NCBI GenBank assembly: GCA_964454305.1
Contig: CAYVXX010000003.1
Coordinates: forward strand, 74 to 64,073
Direction: 5' to 3'
Source of the DNA: an uncultured Syntrophales bacterium
Lineage (GTDB): Bacteria > Desulfobacterota > Syntrophia > Syntrophales > JADFWA01
DNA: 64,000 bases
Shown here in pieces: positions 4,701-47,548 of this stretch (positions within the stretch are counted from its first letter, which is position 1; each line of letters opens with the position of its first letter). The position numbers were made by a program, and so were the translations under genes. Below the pieces are notes generated by a model. It searched no databases and had not been told where the DNA came from. It saw only the letters and a program-made list of their open reading frames with translations.

Positions 4701-5840
4701 ATGACGGGCAACATGAAGAAGATCGAAGTTGTTCCGATTCCGAACAGGAAAAAAGATATCAAGCAATTTGTCCTGTTTTCATGGAAAATATACAAAGATA
4801 ATTCATATTGGGTTCCGCCCATCATATCTGACCAGATGAAGTTCATCACCCAAGGCAGCTATCACGATACCGGTGTAATACAAGCTTTTATGGCCTATCG
4901 AAATGGAGACCCTGTAGGTCGCATTATCGCACATTATGACACACGATATAATGCATTATTTCAAAAAGCCCGGGGATGTATTGGTTTCTTCGAATGTGTC
5001 GATGACAAAGAGGTGTCAAGGGCGCTATTCGACACATCCCGAAAATGGCTGGTCGAAAAGGGAATGAATGAAATGTACGGGCCGCTGAATTTCACGAATT
5101 ATGACGCATCCGGGCTGTTAATGGACGACTATGAAAACGACACAGCCCTGGAATTGAATTATAACCTCCCCTATTATACCGAACTCTTTGAAGACTATGG
5201 TTTTCATAAGGTGATTGACTGGTATGCTTATAGATTTACTCGCGATCAGGATCTGCCGGATATAGCGTATAGATTAAAAGAAAGAATAATTAACAACAGA
5301 TCGGGAATCCGTTTTCGAAACGCAGATTTTAAAAATTATTGGGAAGAAGCCCGCAGTATGCTTGGAGTGTTTAACAAGGCATGGGAAGAAAACTGGGGGC
5401 ACCTGCCGCTGACGGAACGTCAATGGCACCATTATGCAAAGGAAGTAAAAACGGTGGCAAAACCCGAATTTGTCATGTTGGCTGAAAAAGAAGGTCAGGT
5501 CATAGGGTACATATTGGCCGTTCCCGATGTTAATCAGGTTCTAAAGCGCATAAACGGTCGACTATTTCCGTTTGGACTATTCAAAATAATATTGGGATTG
5601 AGGAAGATAAACAGGATTAAAATATATCATATGGGGGTCTTGCCAAAATTTCGAAAACAGGGTATTGAAACTTTGTTCATTCTCGAAATCTACGAACGGG
5701 CGAAAAAAAAGGGGTATAAAGAAGCCGATATATCACTCGTTGTAGAAAACAATACGAGCCTTATCCGACTTCTTGATAGATTCGGAGCGGAACGTTATAA
5801 AACTTACCGTCACTTCACCAAGTCTATTGCCGTGAGATAA
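4701..5840 (+). CDS. GNAT-fold N-acyltransferase-like protein
   Basis: 379 aa. C-terminal acyl-CoA N-acyltransferase core (GVLPKFRKQGIETLFILEIYERAKKKGY). GGAG RBS 7 nt before the ATG. Lies 140 nt upstream of the PKS on the same strand. Confidence 0.6.
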   Translation: MTGNMKKIEVVPIPNRKKDIKQFVLFSWKIYKDNSYWVPPIISDQMKFITQGSYHDTGVIQAFMAYRNGDPVGRIIAHYDTRYNALFQKARGCIGFFECVDDKEVSRALFDTSRKWLVEKGMNEMYGPLNFTNYDASGLLMDDYENDTALELNYNLPYYTELFEDYGFHKVIDWYAYRFTRDQDLPDIAYRLKERIINNRSGIRFRNADFKNYWEEARSMLGVFNKAWEENWGHLPLTERQWHHYAKEVKTVAKPEFVMLAEKEGQVIGYILAVPDVNQVLKRINGRLFPFGLFKIILGLRKINRIKIYHMGVLPKFRKQGIETLFILEIYERAKKKGYKEADISLVVENNTSLIRLLDRFGAERYKTYRHFTKSIAVR

Positions 5841-5980
5841 AAGAGCTTTATCGACAGACCGGAGAGTTTGTCTGATGAGATCCTTTTTATCGGGAAGGTA
5901 TTCCCTATATTTTTTGATTGAGCTTCGATCTTTTTCCTGACTCGTTTTTCCACTGCCCTTATTATGGGGAGAATTAAGAT

Positions 5981-8900
5981 ATGATATCTCATGAAGAAGT
6001 CACGCTAAAAGATACAACAGGGCACATCGCCATTGTCGGCATAGGGTGCCGTTTCCCCGGCGGGATTTCTTCACCGGCGTCTTTCTGGGACTTTCTGTGC
6101 AGCGGTGGAGACGGTATTTCCCATGTGCCCGCCGATCGTTGGGACATAAAAACTTTCTATCATCCTGACAGAGAGAAGAAGGGAAAGGTCTACACTCAAA
6201 AAGGCGGCTTCTTAAGCGAGATAGACCGGTTTGACCCTCAATTCTTCGGCATCTCGCCACGAGAGGCTTCCCATATGGATCCGCAGCAGCGGCTACTCCT
6301 GGAAGTTACATGGGAGGCTCTTGAAGACGGTGGAATGGTTCCTGAGAAACTGGCGGGGACAAACGTTGGCGTGTTTGTCGGACTTTTCATGCACGATTAC
6401 GAGAATATCCATACCGCCGCCACCGAACATGCACTGTATGATCCCCATTCGGTAACGGGAATGTCTACCACGATTGCCGCCAACCGTCTTTCCTATGTCT
6501 TCGACTTCAGAGGACCGAGCATGGTGATTGATACAGCCTGCTCTTCATCATTAGTTGCCGTTCATCTGGCATGCCGGAGCCTGCGGGAAAAGGAAACATC
6601 GCTTGCCGTGGCCGGCGGCGTAAACGTATTGATCAAACCGGAGATTGTCATGACCCTCTGTCAGGCTTCCATGCTCTCGCCGGACGGATACTGTAAAAGT
6701 TTTGACGCCCGGGCAAATGGATATGCCCGATCAGAGGGCGCAGGCGTCGTCGTTATGAAACGACTGACCGATGCACTGGCCGACGGTGACCCCATATATG
6801 CCGTTATTCGAGGGAGCGCGGTTAACCAGGACGGGCGCAGTGAAGGGATCACCGTGCCGAGTGGTGATGCACAGAAGGCAGTTGTTCAAGAGGCGCTCCG
6901 GACAGCCGGCGTTGCACCCCACACTGTAAGTTACGTCGAGGCCCACGGGACGGGCACCCCGGTGGGCGATCTTATCGAAGCGGAGGCCCTCGGTACGATC
7001 CTTTCGAAAGGACGATCCAACGAAAACCGCTGCATTGTCGGTTCCGTGAAGAGCAACATCGGTCATACCGAGTCCGCCGCGGGCGTCGCAAGTCTGATCA
7101 AGGTTGCCCTGATGCTGCGACATCACCGGATACCGCCGAACCTCCACTTTGAAACACCTAATCCCGAAATACAATTCGACCGGTTGAAACTGAGAGTGCC
7201 TACGTCACTGGAGACGTGGACAATTGAAGGTAACGCTCCACGGATTGCCGGTATCAACTCCTTCGGTTTCGGCGGGACAAATGCCCATGTCGTTCTCCAG
7301 GAGTTTGATGGTCCCGTAACTCCTGATACCGCAAAGTCGGACAGCTCTAAAAATGCCATATGCCTGGTGCCTCTCTCGGCAAACAGCCAAGAAGCCCTGC
7401 GTGAACTTGCACGCCGGCATTATGAAATGCTCGTGTCTGATACGTCCGGCAGTATGACCCTTTATGACCTCGGATTTACCGCATCACTGTGCAGGGGACA
7501 CCATTCGAAACGTATGACAATCGCGGCCCGTTCTCTGGAGGATTATCGGGAACATCTCGAAGCCTTTTTAAGAGGCGAGAGACGTCCCGGTTTATCTCTC
7601 GGTAGCGCGCGGCACGGTACGAAGCCGAAGATTGCCTTTGTGTTTTCGGGTATGGGGCAGCAGTGGTGGGCAATGGGTCGGCGGTTACTGGAAGAGGAGC
7701 CGGTATTCAGAAACATTATTGATGAGTGCGATGCCCTGTTCGGGCGACACACCGGGGAATGGTCGTTGATTGGTATCCTGACTGCCGACGAGGATCAATC
7801 GAATATTGATGAAACCATGTTTGCCCAGCCGTCTATCTTTTCCATTCAGGTAGCGCTCGCCGGTTTGTTACGTTCCCGGGGCATCGTGCCTGATGCGATC
7901 GTTGGGCACAGCGTGGGAGAGATCGCCGCGGCTTATACAGCGGGTGCGCTCACCCTTGAAGATGCCGTAAAAGTCTGTTATCACCGCAGTCGTCTGCAGC
8001 ATACACTTGCAGGGCGCGGCGCCATGCTCGCAGTAGGCCTTTCGGCGGAGGATGTCGAAAAGCGTTTCGATGTTTTGCTTCAGGATGTCTCCATGGCGGC
8101 GTTCAACAGCCCGAACTCTGTGACCCTTTCCGGCGATAAAAAGACTCTTGAAGAGATTGCGGCTGTACTGGAAGCCGAGAAGGTATTTGGCCGGTTTCTT
8201 AAGGTGGATGTGCCGTATCATAGTCCCTCAATGGATCCTGTCCTTCAGGATCTGGAGGATTCCCTCAGAACGATCACGCCCCATCCTGTTTCCGCGATTC
8301 TTGTCTCGACTGTTACGGGTAAGACCATTGATGGACAAGATATGAACGGTGGGTACTGGTGCCTTAACGCGAGGGAACCGATCCTGTTTCAAGAAGCGAT
8401 GGATGAACTGGTACGTCATGGATGTGATCTTTTTGTAGAGATCGGCGCCCACCCGGTTCTATCTGCCTCCATTATGGAATGTCTTGACAGTGCAGGGATC
8501 AAAGGAATTGTGGTTCCTACTCTTCGACGCGCGCATGATGAGGAGATTTCCATAGCAAGAGTTGCGGGAGAGCTCTACTGCAGCGGTTACCATCTCGACT
8601 GGAGAGAAAGATACGCCGGCGAAGGGAGATTCATAAAGCTTCCCACCTATCCATGGCAGAAAGAGCATTACTGGACGGAATCGGAGGAGTCGCGACAGGC
8701 ACGTACCGGGGAAGGGATGCTATCCGTCAGGATGGGGGTGGGGCCTAAAGCCCACCCGCTTCTCGGTGGCAGGCTGGCGGCGGCTCTGCCGACATGGAGT
8801 GCCTCCATCGATCTCGAAGACCTGAATTATCTAAGAGATCACATGATCCAGGGTTCTATGGTGTTCCCCGGTGCGGGATATGTGGAGATGGCCCTCGCAG

Positions 8901-11900
8901 GGGCCCGGCAAATCAACGGTTATGGTTCGTATGTCCTGGAATCCGTCTCATTTACAGCCCCCCTTATTTTACGGGGCGAGGCGTCACCCATTGTTCAGTT
9001 CGTCATGGAGGGTGATGAAACCTTCTCCGTTTACAGCAAGTCTGCCGATGACAAACAAAGCTGGGTTAAACATGCCGGCGGAAAACTGCGACCGAACGGA
9101 AGAGAAGAAACGCTTCAAACAATTTCCGTATCGGGGATCAGGAAACGATGCAGTGAAGAAATACCGGTTGAGACTTTCTATAATCGTTTTCGAAGCCTCG
9201 GTCTCGACTACGGGCCTGCATTTCGGAACATCAAAACCATATATACGGGTGAAAGGGAGTCTCTCGGTATGATCGAGACAAACACCGACACTGACGGAGA
9301 TGAAAAAACCTATTATCTCCATCCGGCTACCCTTGATGCCTGTTTCCAGCTCCTCGGAGTGCTCTCCCCCGGCGGGACCTTTCTTCCCGTGGGGATCGAC
9401 AGGATAAGCACCTGGTCACGTCCAAACGGACAGATATGGGGGCATGCCCGCCTCGTTGAACAGAGCGGACGCAGGATCAGGGGCGATATCTCCCTTCTTG
9501 ATGATTCGGGGAATATCCTTGTAGAAATTAAGGGGCTTCGCTGTCGCAATATAGAAGAGACGTCGGCGGAATTCCTCGACGACCTCCTGTATCAGTATGA
9601 ATGGCGTTTGACACCTCTGGGTGGTGGTGAGTCGTCATACCGTGACGCCCGCTATTTGCCGGCTCCGGGTCGAATAAAGGCGGGGCTTGAACCTGTCCTG
9701 AAGGAAATCCTCGAGATGTATTCCCGGAAGGAATACTACAGCGTCATCGAACCGAAGCTGAACGCTCTTTGCACGGCATATATTGTGGAAGGCATGCGAA
9801 CCCTCGGCTTTCAATTCGGCGGTCAGGAACCCTTCACCACTGAAGAGTTTTGCAGCCGTTTCGGCATTGCATTGCAACATGGAAAGCTGTGTGAACGATT
9901 ACTGTCCATGCTGGCGAAAGAGGGGTGGCTCAGCGGCAACGGCCGAGAATGGAAAGTTGGAAAGAAACGAAAAGCGACGTCGCCGCAGAAACTCTGGAAC
10001 GCTCTGATGACGGAACACCCCGAATGCCAGGCGGAGTTGATACTGATCGACCGGTGCGGATCGAAACTTGTCGAGGTCCTCCGCGGTGATGAAGATCCTC
10101 TGGGACTGATTTTTGAACCGGGATCGACCGTGGCGGAACACCTGTATTATCATTCACCGACAATGAGAATATACAACCGGCTGTTGCGGGAGCTGATGTT
10201 GACCGTACTTGATCATCTCCCGGAGGGACAGACAATCCGAATCCTGGAAGTTGGTGCAGGTACCGGTGCGGTAACCTCCTTTCTACTTCCCATCCTTCAT
10301 GGGCGACAGGCAGAATACGTGTTTACCGATATATCGAAAACACTCATCAACGCCGCCCAGGAAGCATTCAGGGAATACCCTTTCGTTGAGTTTCGGCAGC
10401 TCGATATCGAAAAGGACCCTGTTGAGCAGGGGTTCGACCCGCACTCGTTCGACCTTGTCATAGCATCCGATGTGGTTCATGCAACGGAGAACCTGCACAG
10501 GACGCTGGACAACATCAAGCCCCTTCTGGCATCGGACGGCCTCGTAATGATGCTGGAGCTCACCAATCCGTCCTACCTGTTTGACCTGATATTCGGTATG
10601 CTCGACGGGTGGTGGCTTTTCTCCGATTACGACCTGCGTCCCGATCACGCGACAATGCCCCGGGCAGGCTGGGAAAATGTTCTCACTCGATGCGGTTTTT
10701 CCGATATTGTCATGATAGACGATCACATTGATGATCACGCACCGACACAATCGATAATTGTTACAAGAGGACCATCGATTGAGCCGCCCCTCACGGAGGG
10801 AGAGATCGGGATTTCGAAAGAAACATCTTCTCAAACGAAGCGACCCTGGTTGATTCTTGCTGACGAGTCAGGTATTTATCAGCAGCTAACCGTAATACTT
10901 GAAGAAAAAGGCATTTTACCTTCAATTATTAAAAGGGGAGATTCGTTTAAAGAAGTCGCACCCCGGTGTTTTACAATTCGTCCCAATGAGCCGGATGACG
11001 TCGAGCAGGCCATAGGCGCTCTGTGTCCTGACGGGGAATCATCGCCCGTAATTATCAATCTATGGAACGCAGAACCAGGCGATACGGTAATGACCGGGCA
11101 ATTATTGGAAGATACAGTTACAAACGCCTGCATGGAGGTTGCCGGGTTCGTTCAGGCACTCAGCAAAAGACCATGGGAAACCGTTCCTGATTTCTGGCTT
11201 GTGACCGGAGGGACACACCCGATAGGAAGTAACAGCGATATCGCATTGAATCAGACACCTCTCTGGGGATTCGGCCGCGTGATCATCACCGAACATCCGA
11301 ATATACGCCTCCGTCTTGTCGATCTGAGCCGGGTTCCGTCTGAAAGAGAACTGGTGAATTTCTGCGAGGAACTCCTTTCCGATAATAGTGAGGACGAGAT
11401 TGCTCTTCGCGGGAGCGATAGATATGTGCACCGCCTTGTGCAGACAACCGGCTGCAGCCGTCCCGATCCTGATGACGACTCTTTTACTCTTCACAAGACC
11501 CGGGCCAAATCTTCAAAGGATTTTTTGGTTATCGAGGCACAGCGGCACGTGCCCGGACCCGGGGAGGTCGAGCTTAAGGTATATGCCACGGGGCTCAATT
11601 TTAAAGATGTGGCCAAGGTATCAGGGCTCCTTGATGATCTTGACGACGATACTCTCTTTTCGCTCGGGATGGAAGCCTCCGGTGTTATTCTCCGTGTCGG
11701 GGAAGGAGTAAAGAATATAAAAGCGGGCGACAGTGTAATGGGGCTTGTTCAAACAGGTTTTTCAAATTATATCGTCACCGACGCGTATGGTCTTGTTCCG
11801 AAACCCGATCATCTTACCTTTGAACAGGCGGCAGGGATTCCCCTTACTTTCATGACGGCATTTCATGCTCTGCATTCTCTGGCGCGGATTCGCGAAGGAG

Positions 11901-14900
11901 AACGTATACTTGTTCATACGGGTTCCGGAGGCCTTGGTCTCGCGATGATACAGGTCGCCCGTGCAGCAGGCGCAGAAGTATATGCGACGGCAGGCACACC
12001 GGAGAAACGTTCCTTTCTCAGGACAATGGGAATTCCTTACGTCGGCGACTCACGAGGCCTCGACTTTGCGAGAGAATTGCCGGAGATGACGAACAACGAA
12101 GGTGTCGATATCGTCGTAAACACGCTCCCCGCAACTGCCCTTGAAGCAAATATCTCCGTCCTGAAACCGGTCAGCGGACGCCTGATCGATCTTGCCGCCA
12201 TTCAATCCCCGGCTTCCCTGGAAATGAGGCTCTTGGGAAAAGGCATATCGATTGCAGCCTTCGATCTTGAAGCGATGAAAAGAAACACCCCCGAATACCT
12301 GGGGTCGTTGCTCCATCAGGTCGCTGATCGCTTCTGTGATAAAACCTTACACCCATTACCGCATCGGGTTTTCCCGGTTACCGATGTTGCGAGGGCCTTC
12401 AGGAATATGAGAAAGGCCAGCCATATCGGGAAACAAATTCTTTCAATGAGAGAAATAAATGTCATTCCTGTTCCCACACAGTCAACACTGTCCCTGAACC
12501 CGGATGCAACCTATCTCATTGCCGGCGGGTTGGGTGGGTTCGGTATGGCGGTTGCCCGCTGGATGGTATTGTTCGGCGCCCGTTACCTCGTACTCGTCGG
12601 ACGGCACAGCGACTCCTCACCCAAGGTGCATGAGGACTTAAAAATCCTTAAAAAATCCGGAGCGACGGTACGGGTCATCCAGGCAGACATTACAAGCGAA
12701 GAGCATCTTAAATCGGTCTTTGAAGAGATAGACCTGACAATGCCACCCTTGAGGGGTGTCGTACAGTCGGCTATGGTACTCGACGACGGTCCTGTAATGG
12801 AAATGACGTCTGACCGGATAAAACGCGTTGTAGCTCCAAAAGTGCAAGGAGCCTGGAATCTGCATATCCTCACGCTGAAAAAAGACCTTGATTTTTTCAT
12901 TTGTTTTTCATCCTTCGCATCTCTTATAGGAAACGCAAACCAGGCGAGCTATTCCGCGGGAAACGCGTTTCTGGATGCGCTGGCCGATTACCGGAAGGCA
13001 CGGGGACTGCCGGCGCTCACTATCTCCTGGGGCGCACTGGGGGAGACCGGGTATGTTGCGGAACATGAAGAAATCAAGGATGCGTTTCGCCGTCAGGGTG
13101 TGACCGGTTTGACACTGGATAAGGCATGGCAGGTTATAAGACATGGATTGAAGCGGGACGTGACACATATCGGCGCTATGTCGGCACACTGGCCGACTTT
13201 GAGCAGGTTTTCATATGCCGTTGCAAATTCTCCGAGATTTTCCGAACTTATCCAAAGAGAGTACGGGAAGGCTGTTGGTGGCGTTTCTGAAACTGAGGAT
13301 CGGATACGAACGACACTTCCCGCTTCCGGTGAAGAGCGCCATAAACTGTTGGAAGAAGTGCTAATACAAGTTGTCTCCCGTGTGCTTGGGTTGTCTCCGT
13401 CCGGAATGGATATCCACCAGCCGTTGAGTTCGATGGGCTTCGATTCTCTAATGGCTGTGGAACTGAGCCTTGCCGTCGAAAATGCCGTCGGGGTTGTCCT
13501 GCCGAAGGTTGAATATCTCAGACGGGATCTGACTGTTGCCGTGCTCGTGAAAGTCATTGAAAAGGGATTGCCGGAAAGCGGGTTCATTGTATACCATGGT
13601 GGCATACAGTCCCGGGTGAAAGATCAGACGGAGGATACGAACGGAGGGGCTGAATCGACCCGATTTATGACGCTGGGTCAAGATAGCTCTCTTTCCGGCG
13701 GCGGCGATCAGCGTCTCCGGGCGGAAGCCGGGAAAAGAGAGGATATTCTATCAAAAGGGAAGGGCAATGTATACGGCTTTGATGGTCAGTCGTTGCCTCG
13801 AGCTGAAGGATTCATATACCCGCCCGAATATCTCGCATTGAAAGAAAACTCTGAACAGCTGGAAACCGGCGGATACAAAAACTTCTATTTCAATATTTCC
13901 GACGGCATTAACAGCAACATTACGAGCATTGAAGGCAGGAAGCTCATCAATTATTCGAGTTACAACTACCTGGGCATGTCGGGAGACCCGGTAGTTGTGA
14001 AGGCGGCCAAGGACGCCATCGATCGCTATGGGACCTCGGTGTCCGCATCCCGTATCGCCTCGGGAGAAAGAATCTTCCACAGGGAACTTGAAAACGAACT
14101 CTCCGGTTTGATAGGCGCCGAGGATTGTATTGCCTTTGTCAGCGGATTCGGGACAAATGAAAACGTGATTGGACACGTATGTCGTCATGATGACCTCGTG
14201 CTCCACGATTCGCTTATCCACGCCAGTGTGCAGCAGGGTGCCACGCTTTCCGGCGCGCGGGTTCTGCCTTTTCCGCATAATAATTATGAGGCGCTGGACC
14301 GGATATTAAATGATCGTAGAGAAAATTATCGGCAGGTCCTCATTGTCATTGAGGGTGTGTATAGTATGGATGGAGATATACCCGATCTGCCGTGCTTCAT
14401 CGAGATCAAAAAGCACCACAAAGCCTTGCTGATGGTCGACGAAGCTCATTCCATAGGGGTGCTGGGAGAACATGGCAGGGGTATTGGTGAATATTACAGT
14501 GTCGATCCCGGTGAAGTGGACCTTTGGATGGGGACATTGAGCAAGGCATTCGCCAGTTGCGGCGGATACATTGCCGGCAGTAGGGATATGGTGGAATTTC
14601 TTAAGTACACCGCCCCCGGTTTTGTCTACAGCGTGGGAATGACACCACCAGACGCTGCGGCAGCTCTGGCGGCGTTGCGTTTACTGAAGAAGGAACCGGA
14701 ACGGGTCACCCGGCTGCAACAAAACATCTCTCTGTTTCGCGAGATGGCTAAAGAGCGCGGTTTCAATACGGGAAAGAGCAAGGATTCCGCCGTGATTCCG
14801 CTTATTCTCGGACAATCGCTGAAATCTATCAGGATGTACAAGCACCTCAAGGAACAGGACATATTCGCGCTGCCTATTGTCTATCCGGCGGTGCCGGAAA

Positions 14901-37248: not shown

Positions 37249-38349
37249 TTATAAAATGCCATCCCCGCTTTTTATCAAAGAGGGGCGCTTTATTATGTTT
37301 TTACGGAGATCCAGAAAGATAACAATACCTCCCAGAAAAGCCGCTAAAATGGTGGTAGAAAATCGCAACAGGATCGCGAATAATATCAGAATGTCCTGTG
37401 GTATTATATGTCCCAGAAGCCATACGGAAGAAACCTCTTCGATTCCTGACGCGCCGGGTGTCGGGGCAAAATAGTTCAGAAAATAGATTATGATCTGCAA
37501 TCCGATAATTGAACCGAGAGGGACATCCGGCAGGAATACCCGGGCAATTACGTAACCTATCAGAAATTTATTACAGAAAAGGACCGGCGTGATTATAAAG
37601 GTTGCGGCGATGACCGCTTTCTTTTCCTTCCGGAGACGGGCAAAGTCTTCCGTAAATCGGTGTGTACCCTTCTGCAAGAGCCCTAAGGAGAGGTCTTTTA
37701 ATCTTTCCAGCCCGCCAAAACTAAAGGGGATCAGTCTGAAAACGAATTTAACCGAGTTCTCTGCTATCGAAGGAAACAGGAGGATAGAAAAAAGCGCGGC
37801 AGAGAGCACTCCAAAGACAATAAACCCTCCGCGAATCAACTTTTCCATCTGGCTTCCAAAGAGACCTTCAGGGAAAACGTAAAGAACAGTAATACTGGCA
37901 ATTAAAAAAAAGAACAAAGTTGCAATAAAGGTTATTACGGAAACGAGCATACTCTGGGATATTTTCACCCCGCATCTCCAGAGGATATAGAGCTGTGCCG
38001 GACCGCCTCCTGTCCTGAAGGGGGTTACCGCTCCCATAAAACAGTTTGCCCAGTTTGAACGCATGCAGTTCCAAAGCGAGACACAGGGCAATATGGTCCC
38101 GTCAAAAAACAGCCGGAAACGAATGCCGCCGAGTATATAATCGACCACGACTAAAGGTATTACCAGTCCCACAAATGCCCAGTTTAGATTGTATTCCAGG
38201 ACCCGGGAATGGTCGGGTGTTTTCCACCAGAGAGCGATTCCAACCCCGACGACGGTAAATATGATGAACCACTGCATGCCCCGGAAAAGGATTTTACGTG
38301 AAGGTAACAAATCAGTTGTAAGAGAGTTATTCTGCATAACGACGAACAT
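37249..38349 (-). CDS. UPF0104 / lysyl-PG-synthase-TM-like (flippase-like) membrane protein
   Basis: 366 aa, about 8 TM helices. Family-typical motif FLNYFAPTPGASGIEE near the C-terminus. Confidence 0.55.
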   Translation of the reverse strand: MFVVMQNNSLTTDLLPSRKILFRGMQWFIIFTVVGVGIALWWKTPDHSRVLEYNLNWAFVGLVIPLVVVDYILGGIRFRLFFDGTILPCVSLWNCMRSNWANCFMGAVTPFRTGGGPAQLYILWRCGVKISQSMLVSVITFIATLFFFLIASITVLYVFPEGLFGSQMEKLIRGGFIVFGVLSAALFSILLFPSIAENSVKFVFRLIPFSFGGLERLKDLSLGLLQKGTHRFTEDFARLRKEKKAVIAATFIITPVLFCNKFLIGYVIARVFLPDVPLGSIIGLQIIIYFLNYFAPTPGASGIEEVSSVWLLGHIIPQDILILFAILLRFSTTILAAFLGGIVIFLDLRKNIIKRPSLIKSGDGIL

Positions 38350-38400
38350 AGTGTCTTTTTCAAGAAACCGGACTGTGTAATAAAAACCACCCGATATCCG

Positions 38401-39774: not shown

Positions 39775-39866
39775 ACCTGTTGCTCCATTTATGCTTCTTC
39801 TTACTTTATGAAAATATGTCAGAATACCCCATGTTTTACACGGGGATGAAAGGCATCCTTATAGTT

Positions 39867-39985
39867 CCCTCTCTCCCGGTGGGAGAAGGTTAGGAAGAGG
39901 GGGTATTTGACAAATTTTTCACCCCCACCTTACTCCTCCCCCGTCACGTGCAGCGCAGGCGCTTGCGTCGCGTGAGGGGGAGGAG
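39867..39985. repeat. G/C-tract palindromic (REP-like) element pair
   Basis: CCCTCTCTCCCGGTGGGAGAAGGTTAGGAAGAGGGGG, then CTCCTCCCCCGTCACG (39933-39948) pairing with CGTGAGGGGGAGGAG (39971-39985). That is a 15-16 bp stem with one bulge and a 22-nt loop. Lies between two minus-strand genes. Confidence 0.7.
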
Positions 39986-40050
39986 GTTGATTATGGATGT
40001 TCCGCCTACAAGACGGGGCTTGCGGGTGTGTTCCCTGTCAATGTTCGTTC

Positions 40051-41028
40051 TCATGCCGTCTGATAGTTCTTGACCTGTGAATCGATCCAGCGGTATGTTT
40101 TTTCCAATCCAGCCCTCAGCGGCTGAGATGGTTTCCAGCCCAATTTTTCCTGAATAAGCCTGTTGTCCGAATTTCTGCCTCGAACGCCTAACGGTCCCTC
40201 GATGTGTCTAACGGTCAGGTCTTTTCCCGCAATGTCCGTGACCGTTTCTACCAAATGACCAATACTTACCATTTCCTCAGAGCCTATATTCACCGGACCC
40301 GTCCAATCAGATCGCATGAGCCGTGTGATTCCCTCCAGACATTCGTCGATATAGAGGAATGATCTTGTCTGTTTGCCGTCTCCCCAGATCTCTATTTCTC
40401 CCCCATCATTCGCTTCGGCAACTTTTCGGCAAATGGCGGCCGGGGCTTTTTCTCTTCCCCCGTTCCAGACGCCCTCGGGTCCAAATATGTTATGAAAACG
40501 GGCGATGCTCACATGCATTCCGTAATTTCTATGAAATGCAAGATACAGGCGCTCGCTGAACAGCTTCTCCCATCCATACTCACTATCGGGGTGCGCCGGA
40601 TAGACGCTGTCTTCCGAACAGATTGGATTCTCCGGGTCCATCTGATTGTATTGGGGATAGATACATGCCGATGAAGAGTAGAAAATTCGCCCGGTATTTT
40701 CATTTAAACATGCTTCAAGCATATTTAAATTAATCAGGGCCGAATTGTGCATGACATCAGCGTCATTTTCGCCTGTGAAGATGTATCCGGCTCCTCCCAT
40801 GTCGGCAGCCAGCTGGTAGACTTCATCAAACTGTGTGTCAAACAGAGACCTGCAAACCCGTGGATCACGCAAATCTCCCAATAGAAAGTCATCTGCTTCT
40901 GTAGGAGAGAATTCGGGATATTTAAGATCAACACCTCTGACCCAGAATCCTTCATTTTTTAATCTTTTGATCAAATGACTTCCTATGAACCCTCCCGCTC
41001 CGCAGACAAGGGCTCTCTTCTTTGACAT
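40051..41028 (-). CDS. NAD-dependent sugar-nucleotide epimerase, GDP-mannose 3,5-epimerase-like
   Basis: VCGAGGFIGSHL. YQLAADMGGAGYIFTGENDADVMHNSALINLNMLEA closely resembles the AADMGGMGFI...N..MI.FNM.EA block I recall from GME enzymes. Confidence 0.7.
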   Translation of the reverse strand: MSKKRALVCGAGGFIGSHLIKRLKNEGFWVRGVDLKYPEFSPTEADDFLLGDLRDPRVCRSLFDTQFDEVYQLAADMGGAGYIFTGENDADVMHNSALINLNMLEACLNENTGRIFYSSSACIYPQYNQMDPENPICSEDSVYPAHPDSEYGWEKLFSERLYLAFHRNYGMHVSIARFHNIFGPEGVWNGGREKAPAAICRKVAEANDGGEIEIWGDGKQTRSFLYIDECLEGITRLMRSDWTGPVNIGSEEMVSIGHLVETVTDIAGKDLTVRHIEGPLGVRGRNSDNRLIQEKLGWKPSQPLRAGLEKTYRWIDSQVKNYQTA

Positions 41029-41071
41029 GTTATTTACTCCTTACGTATTTTTCAGCTATGCTGAAAAAAAG

Positions 41072-41091
41072 TTGAACTGAACAGCGAGCGC
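41072..41091 (+). repeat. partial copy of the TTGAACTGAACAGCGAGCG repeat family
   Basis: TTGAACTGAACAGCGAGCGC is identical to the left end of the copies at 20414 and, in reverse complement, 44968. Confidence 0.7.
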
Positions 41092-41137
41092 TTTTTCATT
41101 TTCAATACCGGGGATTCTATGTAAAATAGGCATATTG

Positions 41138-42307
41138 TTATTTGCTGAAATACACCTTTTTCAACTGTTCATCCAAGGTGGGACTCGCTTCAACAATTTC
41201 AGTGAATAGTTCCCTGGAAAGGGTAAGAAGTTCCACTTCTTCTATCGCTCTGACCGTAGCGGCGCGCGGTTCCTTTCTTAAGAGAGCGAGTTCCCCGAAG
41301 AAATCGCCGGGGCCAAGTTCGATAAGAAACTCCTCCTTGCCATCCGTTTCCTTAATAACTTTCACACGACCCGTCCGTATGATGTAAAATTTCTCTCCTT
41401 CATCGCCCTGCCTTATAATGACGGTTCCCGCAGGGTGGGTTTCCTGGAGCAGCTTGTTTGCAATATCGGCAAGCAGAGTCGGGTTGGAATCTTTAAAGAT
41501 AGGACACTTTATGAGAAATGTTGCTATTGTCAGAGATTCGGCGACGTCAATATCGGAGTCCACATATCCATCTACCATCCTGACGATACGGTCTGCCACA
41601 TCGAGAATTCGATTGTCATGAGTAACGATAAGGACCGTGCAGTCCTCTGACTTTGCCATTTTTTTGAGGATATTTACAACGAGCCTTCCCGTATTCTTGT
41701 CGAGAGCTGCCGTTGGTTCGTCGGCAAGAATCAGTTTGGGACGGTTTACGAGGGCCCTCCCGATGGCTACCCTCTGTCGCTGTCCGCCCGAAAGTTTTTG
41801 CGGTTTTTTAGAGAGGTGTTCCCCAAGCTCCAGCTCCTTCAAAATCTCTTCAGAGAAGTTTTGGGCATCTTCATTTGTATAGTCAGAAAGCTCAGTGGCA
41901 AGTTTTACATTCTGATATGTGGTCAATGCCTCGAAAAGGTTGTGGGCTTGAAATATAAAGCCTATGTTACGGCGGATCTTAGCTTGTTCCAGAGAACTCA
42001 GCCCATAGAGTTCATTTCCGAAGATTTTCAGACTGCCCTCTTGAACTGCCCGCAAAGCACCGATAAGCGTCAACAGAGTCGTCTTCCCCGAACCGGATGG
42101 ACCTGTCATTATGACAATTTCTCCGGGATACATGGTCAGGTTGTTGTCGAAAAGAACCTGGATTTTATTTTCACCATCGCCGTATGAATAGTTGATATTT
42201 TTTATTTCTATCGAGGGTGCTGCCTTTTTTTTGGTGGAAAAGGTGTGACCGGCCTCTATAGTTTCACGGATTTTTTCTGTGATAGGGTTAAATTCCTGCT
42301 CGGTCAT
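41138..42307 (-). CDS. devA: DevA-family ABC exporter ATPase fused to a C-terminal cyclic-nucleotide-binding domain
   Basis: Walker A GPSGSGKTT, GFIFQAHNL, signature LSGGQRQR, Walker B LILADEPT. The C-terminal ~125 aa (about 41138-41515) carry the CAP/cNMP motif FFGELALLRKEPRAATVRA. Confidence 0.85.
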   Translation of the reverse strand: MTEQEFNPITEKIRETIEAGHTFSTKKKAAPSIEIKNINYSYGDGENKIQVLFDNNLTMYPGEIVIMTGPSGSGKTTLLTLIGALRAVQEGSLKIFGNELYGLSSLEQAKIRRNIGFIFQAHNLFEALTTYQNVKLATELSDYTNEDAQNFSEEILKELELGEHLSKKPQKLSGGQRQRVAIGRALVNRPKLILADEPTAALDKNTGRLVVNILKKMAKSEDCTVLIVTHDNRILDVADRIVRMVDGYVDSDIDVAESLTIATFLIKCPIFKDSNPTLLADIANKLLQETHPAGTVIIRQGDEGEKFYIIRTGRVKVIKETDGKEEFLIELGPGDFFGELALLRKEPRAATVRAIEEVELLTLSRELFTEIVEASPTLDEQLKKVYFSK

Positions 42308-42403
42308 AGTGTACTGTTCTCCGGCTGAAAGCGAAACCTGCCTGTTATTGATGCCTTGTGGGGACAGACTGAAAGGCTTTTTTCAAACATATTTTCATGG
42401 AAG

Positions 42404-43285
42404 TTATAAATTGATGGAGACATTAACTTCCATATTAATCAATTTGTCTGCTACTTCGGAGTGATTAAGGCGAATCTTGACTTTGGCAACTTTCGATTTT
42501 TCGGAAATTACTCTGCCGATGGATTCGATCTGTCCTGTTAATGCTTTGGGCAGAGAATTGCTGGTAATCGTAACACTCTGACCGAGCGACAGTTTCAGGA
42601 GGTCACTCTCGAAAATATCTGCAATTACATATATCTGCCTGAGATCCGCCATCGTTATGATTGTTCCGCTTCCGGTACTTTCCCCAACGTTCTGAAGGAT
42701 CTCGATTATGGTTCCATCACATGGTGCTTTGATGACCGCATTTTGCAATTTTTCTCTGGCTACGTGTAGTTGGTCAATTGCTCTCTTTACCTTGATATCG
42801 CGATCCAATACGAGGCGCTGCAGTTCCTGACCTGCCAGGTCAAGATTGAGTTGAGCAGTCTTTACATGGCTTTCACGGAGCTGTGTCTCCTGTTTGGAAA
42901 CCGAGTCACCACCAATTCTTTCAAATCTGCTGAGTCTTTTTGAGGCTAATTCGTGATCCTCTTTTGCAACCTTCACCTTCAGTTTTTGAATCGCAATGGC
43001 CTTCTTGCCCAGCTTATCTGCCTCCTCTACTGCCAGTTCGGCCAATGCGACTTCAAGCGACTGAGTGGCTTTGCTGCGTAAAATGACGAGCTGTGTCCCT
43101 TTTTCAACAAAATCGCCCTCTTTAACCATAATGTCAGCGATGATATCTCCGGATTGTCCTACCAGATTAACGATACCGCCGGCCGGCTTAATGCGGCCTA
43201 ACGCGCCTACTTTTTCTCCGGCCATGAGTTCCGAATTAACTGCAAACATAGCCAGAACAAGAATGACAACTAATTTCTTTTTCAT
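42404..43285 (-). CDS. devB: DevB-family membrane fusion (HlyD-like) protein
   Basis: Signal/anchor, then GALGRIKPAGGIVNL ... VKEGDFVEKGTQLVIL, a coiled-coil hairpin and a beta-barrel domain. Confidence 0.85.
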   Translation of the reverse strand: MKKKLVVILVLAMFAVNSELMAGEKVGALGRIKPAGGIVNLVGQSGDIIADIMVKEGDFVEKGTQLVILRSKATQSLEVALAELAVEEADKLGKKAIAIQKLKVKVAKEDHELASKRLSRFERIGGDSVSKQETQLRESHVKTAQLNLDLAGQELQRLVLDRDIKVKRAIDQLHVAREKLQNAVIKAPCDGTIIEILQNVGESTGSGTIITMADLRQIYVIADIFESDLLKLSLGQSVTITSNSLPKALTGQIESIGRVISEKSKVAKVKIRLNHSEVADKLINMEVNVSINL

Positions 43286-43321
43286 TTATCACGTCCCAGA
43301 TACATGTTTTTTAAGGTTATT

Positions 43322-44896
43322 TTAAAAGGGCAGCTCCATCAGGCTTTTCAGCCTGAAACGAACTTTCTCGTCTTTTCCGTCTTCTTCAAAAACAGTGCCG
43401 GTAACATAACGGAGTTCGGCCAAAGCTACGATATATTTGCTCATCGCATTATTTTCTGCGACCCTGGCTTCGGAGTAACGGTCCTCTATATCAATGACCG
43501 AGGTCAAAGTGGTTTCATTTTCTTTGAGCTTGGCGTTTTCATGGATTACCGCTTTACGATAATCTTCCGTTGACTTTCGGGAGAGATTGTATTCATGAAT
43601 GGTACGCCGCAGTGTTTCCATGGCAACAAGTACCTGTGAAGCAATATTGTTAGATAATTCAGCCGCAGTAAACGCCTTCTCTTTCACAAGAGCTTTCCTG
43701 CGAAGCATTTCGCCTCGAGCTGCGTTGTTTTCGATTGGTAGTTCGAGGTTGAGCGCCCCGAAGACATTGCCCCCCGTCAGGTTGTTGGAAAACCCTTCGT
43801 AATAGCGGTGTGCATTCGAGCTTTCATCCAGCCCGGCATATCCGACTCTGAAACTGAAATCGAGACGAGGCTTTATATCATTTTCTGCCTTGTGTAAGAG
43901 AATTTCTTCTGTATTAATGTCGACTTTGGATGAGAGATAATCGGCCCTGTGCCTCAACGCTTCGTTGATGTACTTATCACGAGCAAGGGTTTCAAAAACA
44001 TCCGGATTAATCACTTCAGGATATGTTCCCTCTACACGCGGAGCTGTGGATAATTCCTGCGGGGTGAGGCCAATGGCAACGGCAAGGGCCTGTTTGCTTT
44101 TATAAAGCTCAAGCCGGGCATCTGAAAGGCTGCTTTGCCTAATGAGAAGCTTGGCTCTTGCCTGATTCAAAAGAAACGGCTCAATTTCTCCTCCTTGTAC
44201 GAGAAGCTCAACGAGTTTGAATATCTCAAAAGAACGTTTTTCCGAATCTTCAAGGATTTCCACGTTCTTTCCGGCAGCGAGACACTTCCAGTAAGCCGAT
44301 GCTGTGGAGAAAACACTTTTGGAAATATTGTGCTTTGATAATAATTCTGAGGTATTAAGGTTGGAACGTGCAGCCAATTCATTGGCGCCGGTGTTTTTTA
44401 CGCCAAGTCCTCTTAACAGGGGAATGACGATTTCAACGTTGACATCGGAACGATTTACTGATTTGTACTGAGAAGAATTGTCATATGAATCCAACGCCGA
44501 TACAGTTGGCGAAACCGTTATTCCTGTGCGCGACTTTTTTGAAACCCCGATGGATAAAGCTGTATCTTCTCCCTTGAGTTTGTCCGTAACGGAACCGCCA
44601 CTTGAAGCGGCGGCGGCTTCTGCCGCTCGTTTCTGTAATTCCGTCAGGGGCAGCTTTTGAAGCTCTCTGGAAATGGTGCCGGTTCCTGTCCAATCGAATG
44701 TTCCTGAAGCTTTTTGCAGCGCACCTTCACTTTGACGAACTTTTTCTTTCTGTATTTTAACTCCGAGATTAGATTCAAGGGTCTTTAAAATTGCATCCTC
44801 TAAGGAAATGGTACGCTCTGCAGCTTCGAGTTGCTGGAAGGGGATGGAGATGCAAACCAAAAAAAGGAAGATACTGTGTATGAACGTTTTCTTCAT
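43322..44896 (-). CDS. TolC-like outer-membrane efflux channel
   Basis: Signal peptide. Two OEP repeats with long coiled-coil heptads. Position directly upstream of devB. Confidence 0.8.
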   Translation of the reverse strand: MKKTFIHSIFLFLVCISIPFQQLEAAERTISLEDAILKTLESNLGVKIQKEKVRQSEGALQKASGTFDWTGTGTISRELQKLPLTELQKRAAEAAAASSGGSVTDKLKGEDTALSIGVSKKSRTGITVSPTVSALDSYDNSSQYKSVNRSDVNVEIVIPLLRGLGVKNTGANELAARSNLNTSELLSKHNISKSVFSTASAYWKCLAAGKNVEILEDSEKRSFEIFKLVELLVQGGEIEPFLLNQARAKLLIRQSSLSDARLELYKSKQALAVAIGLTPQELSTAPRVEGTYPEVINPDVFETLARDKYINEALRHRADYLSSKVDINTEEILLHKAENDIKPRLDFSFRVGYAGLDESSNAHRYYEGFSNNLTGGNVFGALNLELPIENNAARGEMLRRKALVKEKAFTAAELSNNIASQVLVAMETLRRTIHEYNLSRKSTEDYRKAVIHENAKLKENETTLTSVIDIEDRYSEARVAENNAMSKYIVALAELRYVTGTVFEEDGKDEKVRFRLKSLMELPF

Positions 44897-45473: not shown

Positions 45474-45731
45474 ATGAAAGAGGCGGCAAAAGAAGACATT
45501 CTAACAGATTTGAAGCTTATAGCCGTGAAAGAATTAGAACTTGCTCCGGAAGAGCTTTCCCGGCTTCAGCCTGATTCTCCCATAATAGAAACTCTCAACC
45601 TCGATTCCCTTGCCCAGACGGCGTTTATATTCGCGATTGAAGATCATTATGGAATTGCATTTGAGCTGGAAGATACGGCAAAAATAGAAACCTTACAGGA
45701 TATAATTAATCTAATCAAAAAAAAGATATAG
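45474..45731 (+). CDS. stand-alone acyl carrier protein
   Basis: 85 aa, four-helix ACP pattern with attachment motif LNLDSLAQTAFIFAIE. Confidence 0.8.
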   Translation: MKEAAKEDILTDLKLIAVKELELAPEELSRLQPDSPIIETLNLDSLAQTAFIFAIEDHYGIAFELEDTAKIETLQDIINLIKKKI

Positions 45732-45760
45732 CACCGGTTTACCGGGTAGAGGCTTTTATA

Positions 45761-47548
45761 ATGGTCCAGCACAAAGTGCCATTTTTAACTATCGTGGAAG
45801 CGCTCTCTACGAGAGAAGAATGTACGTCATTTGGTGTGCGGTTCATCTCTCGCTCCGGTGAAGCTACCTTTTACCCATACTGCGATATCCTGAAAAGGGC
45901 AAAGTCAGTGGCTGGCACACTTCAGTCCACGGGCCTTGTGCCGGGAGATCGTGTGGGCGTGATCCTTCCTACCTCGATTCACTTCTTTGACGTGTTTCTC
46001 GGTGTTATACTCGCCGGGGGAATTCCTTGCGCGCTATATCCGCCATTTCGGCTTGGCCGGTTGCCCGAATACTACGATCGAACCCGGAGGATGTTGTCAA
46101 AAATCGGAACGAGGTTTCTCGTTGTGGATGGGCGAATAGGAAAGATCTTAGGCCCGGTCGTGGAAGGCGTGGATACTGTCGAAACCGTTTTCAATCCCAA
46201 GAGTCTTCTCGGTTCTGCCGTATGGACCCCGGTTTACCCCGATCCGGACAGTCCCGCCTTTCTGCAATTTTCATCCGGTACTACCGTTGATCCGAAGGCA
46301 GTTATAGTGTCGCACGTAAATCTTATCAGCAATCTGGAGATGATGGGCAAGATATTCCGGATGTATTCTCCGGAAGAGCTGTCCCTGGAGACTGTGTGCT
46401 GGCTTCCCCTTTATCACGACATGGGTTTGGTCGGATGTATGTTCAATGGGCTTTATTATCCCGCAACAATGAATTATATCGAGCCCGACGTTTTTGTCGC
46501 AAAGCCTGCTATCTGGTTACAGACAATCTCCCGCTACAGAGCGGGAATTTCTCCGGCCCCTCACTTTGCATACAATTTCTGCACAGAAAAAATCAGAGAT
46601 GATGAAATGGCCGGGGTGGACCTCTCATGCTGGAAAGTTGCGATGAACGGGTCGGAACAGATCGATGTGCCTGGGATAAAAAAATTTGTACAGCGTTTCG
46701 CGAAGTGGGGTTTCAGTGACGCCGCGATGACCCCCGTCTATGGGCTCGCGGAAACGGTATTAGCCGTCACATTTTCTGATTTTATGGAGCCGCCGGTGGT
46801 AAAGGAGTTTGATCGTGCGAGTATCTCCGAACAGGGGAGGGCCGATCCGGGAGACGGACATGAGGTTGTCTCCGTCGGCCGGCCTCTTTGCGGAATCGAT
46901 GTTCGGATTTGCGATGAGCGGGATACACCGATGAAAGATAATCGCGTTGGCAAGATCATGGTAAAGGGACCCTCTGTGTCGCCCGGCTACTATGGCGATC
47001 CGGAAACGACCTCAACGACGATCCGCAACGGCTGGCTCGATACCGGAGATTTGGGATTCATCTGCGATAAAGAGCTATACATTACCGGAAGGACAAAGGA
47101 CATTATAATAATTCGCGGCCAAAACATTGCCCCTCAGGCAATCGAAACACTGGTGTGCGATGTAAAGGATGTTCGTGCCGGATGTGTTGCTGCGGTCAGT
47201 ACATTTGTGAAAGGGAAGGGCGAGCAGCTCATCATTCTTGCCGAGAGGGACAGGCGCGCCACACGATCGGAAGAAGTATTAGTCGGAATGATAAGGGAAT
47301 GTGTTATTGCAGGCACAGGGTTGAGTCCGCACCTCGTGCAAATACTTGAACCCGGTACCCTCCCGCGTACCTCATCGGGAAAGATACGACGCCTCGATGC
47401 GCTGAGAATGTTTCTTGCCGGAGAACTTGTACCGCCTGAAAAAATGGGCGCCCTGAAGATAATCATAGGGCTTGCGAAGTCTTGTCTTGCCTGGGGTCGA
47501 TTCCGGCTTAAACGGTACAGACAGTATGGAAAAGTTGAAAATTTGTAG
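45761..47548 (+). CDS. fatty acyl-AMP ligase (FAAL-type adenylating enzyme)
   Basis: AMP-binding motifs LQFSSGTTVDPKAV, YHDMGL, TGDLGF, SSGKIRR. The overall N-terminal pattern (FLT..EAL...) is typical of FAALs that load ACPs rather than CoA. Confidence 0.8.
   Translation: MVQHKVPFLTIVEALSTREECTSFGVRFISRSGEATFYPYCDILKRAKSVAGTLQSTGLVPGDRVGVILPTSIHFFDVFLGVILAGGIPCALYPPFRLGRLPEYYDRTRRMLSKIGTRFLVVDGRIGKILGPVVEGVDTVETVFNPKSLLGSAVWTPVYPDPDSPAFLQFSSGTTVDPKAVIVSHVNLISNLEMMGKIFRMYSPEELSLETVCWLPLYHDMGLVGCMFNGLYYPATMNYIEPDVFVAKPAIWLQTISRYRAGISPAPHFAYNFCTEKIRDDEMAGVDLSCWKVAMNGSEQIDVPGIKKFVQRFAKWGFSDAAMTPVYGLAETVLAVTFSDFMEPPVVKEFDRASISEQGRADPGDGHEVVSVGRPLCGIDVRICDERDTPMKDNRVGKIMVKGPSVSPGYYGDPETTSTTIRNGWLDTGDLGFICDKELYITGRTKDIIIIRGQNIAPQAIETLVCDVKDVRAGCVAAVSTFVKGKGEQLIILAERDRRATRSEEVLVGMIRECVIAGTGLSPHLVQILEPGTLPRTSSGKIRRLDALRMFLAGELVPPEKMGALKIIIGLAKSCLAWGRFRLKRYRQYGKVENL

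Follow-up and report, generated by a model that had tools for sequence, protein, structure and literature searches.

Related systems

Sphingolipid synthesis that depends on a polyketide synthase (PKS) was first shown in 2025, in one Pseudomonas. According to Peters et al. (2025, Nat Commun, PMC12134224), the iterative type I PKS SgaA of P. fluorescens MYb115 acts with SgaB, an α-oxoamine synthase (AOS) with proven, serine-specific serine palmitoyltransferase (SPT) activity, and with SgaC, a KDSR-like short-chain dehydrogenase/reductase (SDR). The products are C24–C28 sphinganines and phosphoglycerol sphingolipids, and 6101 homologous sga clusters were counted. The locus described here lies in a window of 64,000 nucleotides from an uncultured Syntrophales bacterium (GCA_964454305.1, contig CAYVXX010000003.1, positions 74 to 64,073). 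A block of about 43 kb in this window had been predicted to make, flip and export one PKS-derived sphingoid lipid. At one end of the block are a tandem-repeat N-acyltransferase of the GNAT family, a PKS-AOS megasynthase and an SDR; at the other end are an acyl carrier protein (ACP) and a fatty acyl-AMP ligase (FAAL). These five genes are called the core below. Judged by homology and gene order, the window fairly probably carries an SgaABC-type, PKS-dependent sphingoid-base pathway within a lineage-specific envelope-lipid island, and the locus would thus extend this type of pathway to an uncultured anaerobe.

The window and the sga locus have in common a highly reducing type I PKS that feeds an SPT-like AOS, an SDR, presumably for ketone reduction, and head-group and glycan genes nearby. 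Unlike in Sga, the PKS and AOS of the window are fused in one 3008-aa protein, and the window has an FAAL and ACP starter pair, a 379-aa tandem GNAT, an SDR of another subfamily and a DevBCA-TolC exporter. The head-group genes are also different: the window has PAP2_3, a 2-aminoethylphosphonate (AEP) cassette, LicD, Stealth and two family 4 glycosyltransferases (GT4), whereas Pseudomonas has LtaS-like and KpsC/S-Kdo genes.

The ceramide pathway of Caulobacter consists of Spt, ACP, an ACP-synthetase, bCerS and CerR (PMC9393093). Counterparts of all five (Spt-like enzyme, ACP, ACP-loading synthetase, N-acyltransferase and reductase) are present in the window, as had been predicted, and a relative of the window GNAT belongs to an AMP-ligase, ACP, AOS and GNAT locus with an SDR (L178, see below). 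The window differs from Caulobacter by a PKS module inserted between ACP and AOS, and by a classical SDR in place of CerR. CerR is a member of the NAD-dependent epimerase/dehydratase family.

In the heterocyst glycolipid system of Anabaena, the Hgl PKS is combined with a glycosyltransferase and the DevBCA-HgdD/TolC exporter. The window likewise has a PKS predicted to make a long-chain lipid, glycosyltransferases, and DevB, DevC and DevA with a TolC-like protein. Unlike the heterocyst lipid, the predicted product is an AOS-made amino alcohol and not a fatty alcohol, the host is not a cyanobacterium, and there are two DevC paralogues and a cyclic-nucleotide-binding (cNMP) domain on DevA. Fungal clusters for fumonisin (Fum1/Fum8/Fum13), sphingofungin and myriocin have the highly reducing PKS order KS-AT-DH-cMT-ER-KR-ACP, an AOS step that joins the chain to an amino acid, and a reduction of the KDSR type, and a ketone reduction is also expected in the window pathway. 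The window differs from them in its bacterial host, in the PKS-AOS fusion, and in neighbours that point to envelope targeting rather than to a toxin.

In published phosphonyl-tailoring (Pnt) clusters (Rice et al. 2019, PMC6697681; Li and Horsman 2022, PMC8942020), a Ppm fused to a PF12804 domain goes together with a second PntC and LicD-like transferases, and what is decorated is usually a glycan or a lipid. The window has the same fusion, second PntC and LicD-like transferase, together with Ppd and AEP transaminase. In contrast to these clusters and to the phosphonosphingolipid of Bacteriovorax stolpii, its AEP genes share their neighbourhood with PKS-AOS and PAP2_3.

A PKS that replaces the fatty-acyl supply of Spt is thus already published, and the AEP cassette and DevBCA are of known kinds. 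New are the PKS-AOS fusion together with FAAL/ACP and a tandem GNAT in an anaerobic Syntrophales lineage, the juxtaposition of these genes with Pnt, PAP2_3 and DevBCA genes, and the association of PAP2_3 with AEP genes. The locus provides candidates for an enzyme able to attach a phosphonate head group to a sphingolipid, and for the route of such a lipid to the outer surface.

The PKS-AOS megasynthase

Over 390 aa, the AOS domain shares 53% identity with PfSgaB (E 6e-133; the PfSgaB sequence is that printed in Fig. S6 of the supplement of Peters et al. 2025, PMC12134224). Both contain the motifs YNYLG.SG, YGTSVSASR and GTLSK..ASCGGYIAG. Canonical SPT, KBL and BioF structures match the domain far less closely (about E 1e-74 or weaker), and it falls under the cut-off of every NCBIfam SPT, BioF and KBL model. 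The catalytic motifs of the megasynthase are all intact, with DTACSS, HGTGT and NIGH in KS, GHSVGE in AT, and further HxxxGxxxxP, ILEVGAGTG, HTGSGGLG, YSAGN, GFDSL and TLSK.

A tblastn search against plasmids found a locus in Pseudomonas sp. TMW 2.1634 (L179; plasmid NZ_CP016850.1, record 11213–31779), the gene spacing of which is the same as in the MYb115 sga locus. Residues 15–1573 and 1711–2526 of the window PKS, including the cMT region, align to the SgaA-like L179 PKS that precedes the AOS (E = 0). Because its AOS resembles PfSgaB and its PKS is collinear with that of L179, the 3008-aa window protein is a fused SgaA-SgaB-type megasynthase. Orthologues with the same fusion are found in two relatives, L172 (3000 aa) and the metagenome contig JGI 3300075153 (2969 aa). 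The same two comparisons bear out the original prediction that a PKS here replaces Spt; the novelty claimed for this replacement does not hold, for it is reported by Peters et al. (PMC12134224).

As the AOS passes none of the SPT, BioF and KBL models, an enzyme that uses alanine, glycine or cysteate instead of serine has to be considered. It would make a 1-deoxy or other amino lipid, which has no C1 hydroxyl and could take no phospho- or phosphono-head group at C1, and 1-deoxyceramides have been attributed to Desulfobacterota in anoxic waters. The 53% identity to PfSgaB argues against this substrate choice, PfSgaB being reported to prefer L-serine strongly over alanine and glycine in vitro, and we hold a non-serine AOS to be very improbable. 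From its homologies, the core very probably makes a serine-derived long-chain amino alcohol.

The AT domain (PKS residues ~640–760) reads VPYHS where the specificity motif HAFH (malonyl) or YASH (methylmalonyl) is usual, so that the choice of extender unit is not readable from the motif. The cMT has kept its motifs, so S-adenosylmethionine could be the source of a methyl branch.

Conservation of the core genes

A set of 84 AOS-clade loci was assembled, 80 from a scan of species-representative genomes with an AOS-clade alignment and four found earlier, and the six-frame open reading frames (ORFs) within 10 kb of the AOS were searched with every window protein. Homologues of the window FAAL were found in 58 of the 84, mostly as part of a ~1150-aa FAAL-ACP-AOS tri-domain protein, those of the PKS in 19, of the SDR in 13 and of the GNAT in four; PAP2, Ppm and AEP transaminase each have a homologue in a single locus.

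The synteny of GNAT, PKS, AOS and SDR is kept in Acidobacteriota, in Deltaproteobacteria and in near relatives. In L172, the nearest relative by GNAT (67% identical), a divergent FAAL gene is followed by GNAT, the fused PKS-AOS, SDR and then, on the opposite strand, a 590-aa Methyltransf_21 (FkbM) gene, placed and oriented like the FkbM gene of the window. The L172 FAAL, 79% identical to that of the window in nucleotides, stands directly beside GNAT. JGI 3300075153 (GNAT 62%) has GT2, AsnB-like and GT4-GT4 genes divergent from GNAT, and then PKS-AOS, SDR and a KS. Both L091 and L093 show a divergent GNAT followed by PKS, AOS and SDR, while L026 (Nostocaceae) has PKS, FAAL-ACP-AOS and SDR together. 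In all, GNAT homologues adjoin AOS in L011/L091, L021, L061, L093, L172, L178 and JGI 3300075153, and the SDR (49–52% identity) comes directly after AOS in every one of L007, L009, L091, L093, L172 and others. L178, a 4.8-Mb spirochaete-like contig (GNAT 54%), carries an FAAL-like AMP-ligase, ACP, AOS and GNAT on one strand with a divergent SDR; the five Caulobacter-type functions are present in it without a PKS.

The shared synteny in relatives thus makes FAAL, ACP, PKS-AOS, SDR and GNAT one pathway, and the FkbM gene probably belongs to it as well. The predicted logic of initiation, condensation, reduction and N-acylation is well supported by this synteny, by the adjacency of FAAL and GNAT in L172 and by the likeness of the AOS to PfSgaB. 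The two ends of the block are accordingly supported as parts of one sphingoid-base or ceramide-type pathway, in which the PKS feeds the SPT-like AOS.

The steps of this pathway are predicted from homology and synteny, the family assignments being what was observed. FAAL would adenylate a fatty acid and load it onto the free-standing ACP. The KS-AT-DH-cMT-ER-KR-ACP part of the megasynthase would lengthen it by at least one C2 unit, fully reduced and perhaps alpha-methylated, and the SgaB-like AOS would condense the ACP-bound acyl chain with L-serine, releasing a 3-ketosphinganine analogue. The adjacent SDR would then reduce the ketone, and the tandem GNAT would acylate or acetylate the amine.

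The SDR had been called KDSR-like. It is a generic classical SDR, with 25% identity over 106 aa to PfSgaC (a sequence derived by optical character recognition), E 4e-8 to the SDR of L179, and FabG-type proteins as its best PDB matches. The assignment as KDSR is therefore unsupported by the PfSgaC and PDB comparisons, and it is synteny, not sequence, on which the reductase role is kept. A metagenome scan with the SDR alignment gave at least three true orthologues (L092–L094), and no close relatives, among the matches listed.

The AlphaFold model of the GNAT (pLDDT 90.9) has a tandem-GNAT fold that resembles MshD and glucosamine N-acetyltransferases. Such a fold fits modification of an amine nitrogen and does not fix the length of the acyl chain. 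We see the GNAT as a candidate for N-acylation or N-acetylation of the sphingoid base. The N-acetyltransferases among its structural neighbours would also suit a different end of the pathway. The PKS-AOS product could be a secreted sphinganine-analogue secondary metabolite, following the logic of fumonisin, sphingofungin and the MYb115 sphinganines, which is N-acetylated by GNAT and exported by the SyrD-type ABC protein without ever becoming a structural lipid. That ABC exporter (17646–19337) belongs to a cyclic-peptide or secondary-metabolite exporter family, and Peters et al. (PMC12134224) call the Sga products secondary metabolites. However, the GNAT family also occurs in plain AMP-ligase, ACP, AOS and GNAT runs that resemble primary sphingolipid loci, and the presence of PAP2, flippase-like and Dev genes speaks for a lipid of the membrane or cell surface. 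A secreted metabolite is in our judgement improbable.

A service of FAAL and ACP to the downstream Slam and lipoprotein genes, which lie on the same strand after a gap of 62 bp, was considered and rejected, because the FAAL orthologue of L172 adjoins GNAT-PKS-AOS and has no Slam.

Within the SgaB-type AOS clade, the most frequent arrangement is the single ~1150-aa FAAL-ACP-AOS protein (e.g. L021, L027, L013, L016 and L050), the form seen in most of the 58 FAAL-positive loci. Its taxa are mainly Pirellulales/Planctomycetota, Cyanobacteriota and Deltaproteobacteria. A full-text literature search found no paper on FAAL-ACP-AOS fusions. If these enzymes make sphingoid bases, the bacterial producers of sphingolipids and the routes to them would be wider than Spt-based surveys suggest.

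The AEP cassette and PAP2_3

The Ppm protein scores 333.4 bits with TIGR02320 (cut-off 319.55) and has the motif EDKRFPKMNS, of the EDKxxxxxNS type, at residue 135. An NTP_transf_3 domain (PF12804 cytidylyltransferase) is fused to it as the nucleotidyltransferase (NT) part, and a second copy is encoded upstream. Ppd is split, with TPP_enzyme_N and TPP_enzyme_C on two ORFs, and the AEP transaminase is just under the cut-off of the PhnW-AepZ model TIGR03301 (348.3 against 360.8 bits).

This five-gene cassette was also found in L173, L174 and L176. In L173 (Ppm-NT 64% identical, 66% GC) it is directly followed, after 10 bp, by a PAP2_3 gene (8453–9295, minus strand), the product of which is 51% identical to the window PAP2 (E 7e-71). 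No glycosyltransferase lies near this unit, and the compact AEP and PAP2 pair is a candidate minimal phosphonolipid module. In L174 (Ppm-NT 71% identical, 46% GC, the contig closest to the window in composition) orthologues of the epimerase (E 1e-169) and of the UDP-sugar dehydrogenase UGDH come next after the cassette. L175, L176 and L177 (Ppm-NT 57–61%) are glycan-type loci with GT2, GT4 and GT9 genes and with Wzy_C, Polysacc_synt or CDP-alcohol transferase genes, and no PKS was found in them. On the side of the core, the Gemmatimonadaceae locus L061 has a PAP2 gene, 32% identical in product to that of the window, between FAAL-ACP-AOS and GNAT.

The window PAP2 has PSAH at residue 220 and HYLTDV at 263, and lacks K-x6-R-P, the C1 motif of phosphatases. 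The S-x-H and H-Y-x-x-D-V motifs are what we take to be the catalytic pattern of sphingomyelin and inositol phosphorylceramide (IPC) synthases (SMS/Aur1-like). No sequence match in PDB and no NCBIfam match was obtained for this protein, and its single-sequence AlphaFold model (pLDDT 50) is too poor for fold comparison. The GT4a, GT4b and PAP2_3 genes are separated by −4 and 43 bp and form a putative operon. A literature search found no paper on an enzyme that attaches AEP to ceramide. PAP2_3 might attach AEP, from CMP-AEP or an AEP-glycerolipid, to the C1 hydroxyl of a ceramide-like lipid; the window would then hold every step towards a glycosylated phosphonosphingolipid of PKS origin, which DevBCA-TolC would place on the cell surface. 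We offer this as a speculation that is more probably wrong than right by far.

About 6 kb past the end of the predicted block, a myo-inositol-1-phosphate synthase gene stands beside a gene for a 208-aa CDP-alcohol phosphatidyltransferase. The best matches of the latter are archaetidylinositol-phosphate (AIP) and phosphatidylinositol-phosphate (PIP) synthases (160.6 bits, cut-off 180). If PAP2_3 acts like an IPC synthase, this pair could, as we infer, supply its phosphatidylinositol donor.

Association of the modules

The original prediction placed almost every gene of the block in one system. What stands of it is the core and the recurrence of modules in pairs; no relative was found to carry all the modules, and joint conservation of all the ~30 genes is not supported. 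Co-occurrence and synteny in relatives give the same divided picture, for the core is syntenic and PAP2 is paired with AEP genes, but the modules lie on separate contigs, and DevB and DevC homologues are found in none of the 84 AOS loci.

Several results weigh against a single system. Searches based on AOS, GNAT and Ppm found no genome in which all modules are together. The nearest relatives have them apart: the core with FAAL and FkbM in L172, AEP with PAP2 in L173, and AEP with epimerase and UGDH in L174. The GC contents of these loci (55%, 66% and 46%, respectively) differ, and the pairwise links therefore come from different organisms; each link, moreover, has been seen in one or two loci. 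Stealth, LicD, FkbM, FUT8-like, NT-CobD, DevB, DevC, TolC and flippase homologues were all absent within 10 kb of AOS in the 84 loci. The Ppm-NT homologues next in similarity come from glycan loci of an ordinary kind, which have Wzy/Wzx or GT2/GT9 genes, and neither the SDR nor the GNAT is of the same subfamily as in the Pseudomonas locus. The predicted role of the neighbouring genes in the same lipid is partly supported. In JGI 3300075153 the core is accompanied by unrelated glycosyltransferases.

The block may instead be a mosaic of neighbouring, independent loci, namely an Sga-type cluster, a phosphonoglycan or teichoic-like locus (Pnt, LicD, Stealth, NT-CobD and glycosyltransferase genes) that decorates a glycan whose priming genes lie outside the block, elsewhere in the genome, and a DevBCA-TolC exporter for some other substrate. 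The separation of the modules in L172, L173 and L174, the Wzx/Wzy or glycosyltransferase-rich glycan loci of other Ppm-NT homologues, and the 84 AOS-clade loci free of these neighbours all agree with a mosaic. So do the thought that most Pnt clusters decorate glycans and the c-di-GMP cyclase gene, typical of exopolysaccharide control, in the middle of the block. The position of the head-group and export genes is against it, since they separate two halves of a single pathway that adjoin in L172. Among the window ORFs scanned there is no polyprenol-phosphate priming transferase (WbaP/WecA), Wzx, Wzy, Wza/Wzc or KpsMT, which also favours integration. PAP2 is tied both to AEP (L173) and to AOS/GNAT (L061), and the dev operon has the sugar-nucleotide genes within it. 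Taken as a whole, the pairwise links run from PAP2 to AEP and to AOS/GNAT, from AEP to epimerase/UGDH, from epimerase/UGDH to DevBCA and the flippase-like gene, and from FkbM to SDR. Independent loci seem unlikely to us, yet deserve serious attention.

The gene arrangement is not an assembly artefact, since it recurs in independent metagenome contigs. Positions 5056–25838 of the window were found again in six of them, at 99.1–100% nucleotide identity, and GNAT, SDR, IspG and ProRS are all on one 118.6-kb metagenome contig. IspG, ProRS and RelA are housekeeping genes at the window end, and for a ProRS that falls in the same 90% cluster the annotated source is a Syntrophales MAG. By per-gene GC and third-position GC (GC3), the PKS has 53% GC and the housekeeping genes 44–49%; the variation across the block is gradual, and no insertion boundaries could be defined from it. 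An Rfam scan of the window matched no riboswitch and no other RNA family, so no regulatory link through RNA connects the operons.

In the envelope-lipid island that we favour, later and less certain steps would follow those of the core. The PAP2_3 protein that lacks C1 and the two co-operonic GT4 enzymes would add the head group, of phospho(no)- or glyco- type, with uronic acid supplied by UGDH and the epimerase. The Pnt cassette would make CMP-AEP, for transfer by LicD or PAP2. Transport of the product to the cell surface would fall to the flippase-like protein, DevBCA-TolC and the SyrD-type ABC exporter. That the GT4 enzymes, PAP2 and the exporters act on the core lipid is a tentative proposal, quite possibly right; an attachment of AEP to this lipid as well is doubtful. 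From gene content, the product is plausibly a glyco- or phosphono-sphingolipid.

Lineage-specific head-group or glycan genes beside Sga-type cores look recurrent, in view of L179 and a Planktothrix plasmid. L179 encodes PKS, AOS, a phytanoyl-CoA dioxygenase, three KpsC/KpsS-type Capsule_synth proteins and GNAT, and also an LtaS-like sulfatase-family protein, SDR, an APH-type kinase, KpsF and KdsB. In the Planktothrix plasmid a PKS-AOS fusion adjoins FAAL, two GT39 genes and another glycosyltransferase gene. The L179 gene set hints that Kdo may be added to the phosphoglycerol sphingolipid, much as in the lyso-PG-Kdo capsule anchor; in the cited passages of Peters et al. (PMC12134224) such an extension is not discussed.

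Other genes of the window

ORF mapping with Pfam and NCBIfam scans matched the predicted gene list almost gene for gene. All gene types named in it exist at or near the positions expected, and nearly every named family was confirmed (Table 1).

Table 1. Features of the window, with coordinates counted from its first nucleotide.
Feature	Position	Strand	Evidence or remark
GNAT, tandem-repeat N-acyltransferase, 379 aa	4701–5840	+	Pfam Acetyltransf_1
PKS-AOS megasynthase, 3008 aa, KS-AT-DH-cMT-ER-KR-ACP-AOS	5981–15007	+	Pfam; C-terminal class-I/II aminotransferase domain is the AOS
Classical SDR, putative 3-ketosphinganine reductase	15056–15838	+	Pfam adh_short
FkbM methyltransferase fusion, 571 aa	15916–17631	−	Methyltransf_21 at residues 392–556
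Half-size ABC exporter (TMD + NBD), cyclic-peptide/SyrD-YojI type	17646–19337	−	TIGR01194, 432.8 bits (cut-off 286.2)
Stealth family protein	19507–20460	+	Stealth CR1–CR4 all matched
LicD-family phosphotransferase	20569–21270	−	PF04991, 42.4 bits (cut-off 22.6)
AEP cassette: PntC-like NT, Ppm-NT fusion, split Ppd, AEP transaminase	21318–25831	+	Pfam, NCBIfam
PAS-GGDEF diguanylate cyclase	26051–27286	−	Pfam
FIST sensor gene, split in two ORFs	27207–28365	−	Pfam
Weakly FUT8-like putative glycosyltransferase	28758–29741	−	FUT8_N_cat, E 1.8e-5, under Pfam cut-off
NT fused to CobD-like pyridoxal phosphate (PLP) decarboxylase	29795–31642	−	NTP_transferase + Aminotran_1_2
GT4a and GT4b, two genes	31814–33984	+	Pfam
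PAP2_3 protein	34028–34918	+	PF14378, 66 bits (cut-off 27)
Putative operon: TolC-like, DevB, DevA, epimerase, UDP-sugar dehydrogenase, MprF-TM flippase-like, DevC, DevC	34930–44896	−	Pfam, NCBIfam
UGDH and epimerase	38401–41028	−	Within the putative dev operon
DevA-family ABC ATPase with C-terminal cNMP domain	41138–42307	−	cNMP domain, E 4.8e-27
Stand-alone ACP, 85 aa, DSL motif	45474–45731	+	Chain-initiation pair with FAAL
FAAL, 595 aa	45761–47548	+	Chain-initiation pair with ACP
myo-Inositol-1-phosphate synthase and PIP/AIP-synthase-like CDP-alcohol phosphatidyltransferase	53662–55675	−	Beyond the predicted block

The two proteins predicted to be fucosyltransferase-like have weak matches of that kind, one to FUT8_N_cat, under the Pfam cut-off, and the other, the FkbM protein, through its otherwise unassigned N-terminal domain to the FUT8-like protein (E 1e-4). 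The Stealth family consists of hexose-1-phosphate transferases. The best NCBIfam match of the NT and PLP-enzyme fusion is the threonine-phosphate decarboxylase CobD (189 bits, cut-off 290), and the fusion would supply a CDP-aminoalcohol. LicD-like enzymes are typical neighbours in Pnt clusters (Li and Horsman 2022, PMC8942020; Rice et al. 2019, PMC6697681).

The exporter genes DevBCA-TolC lie in one putative operon. DevB (130.7 bits, cut-off 129) and DevA (330.1, cut-off 295.8) pass their NCBIfam models, the two DevC paralogues (276.2 and 252.2, cut-off 290) are slightly under theirs, and the TolC-like protein has an OEP domain. The intergenic gaps of the operon are short, and the sugar-nucleotide genes, including that of the NDP-sugar dehydrogenase (318.6 bits, cut-off 189.8), and the flippase-like gene sit inside devBCA-tolC. 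The cNMP domain on DevA suggests direct control of the exporter by a cyclic nucleotide; the diguanylate cyclase gene is 14 kb from the gene of this protein.

FIST-N (27874–28365) and FIST-C (27207–27956) are in different frames with an overlap of 83 bp, just upstream of PAS-GGDEF. A frameshift, a pseudogene or an error of sequencing may account for the split. The PAS-GGDEF and FIST genes could fit in the block only as regulators, and the comparative data give no link between them and the lipid genes.

Flanking genes

Directly downstream of FAAL (47611–53621, plus strand, gaps of 34–97 bp) are genes for a homologue of Slam (surface lipoprotein assembly modulator), an 853-aa FecR/TbpB-beta-barrel protein and a TPR protein. 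The 853-aa protein is likely the surface-lipoprotein cargo of Slam. A Slam system is unusual in a Syntrophales-like genome, and the FAAL of L172 has no Slam neighbour. Upstream of the cluster (29–4198, minus strand) lie genes for a beta-propeller phytase (E 9e-71), a 543-aa multihaem cytochrome c, a thioredoxin-like protein and a Sir2 deacetylase. The presence of the phytase gene near inositol-lipid and phosphonate genes may reflect phosphorus economy.

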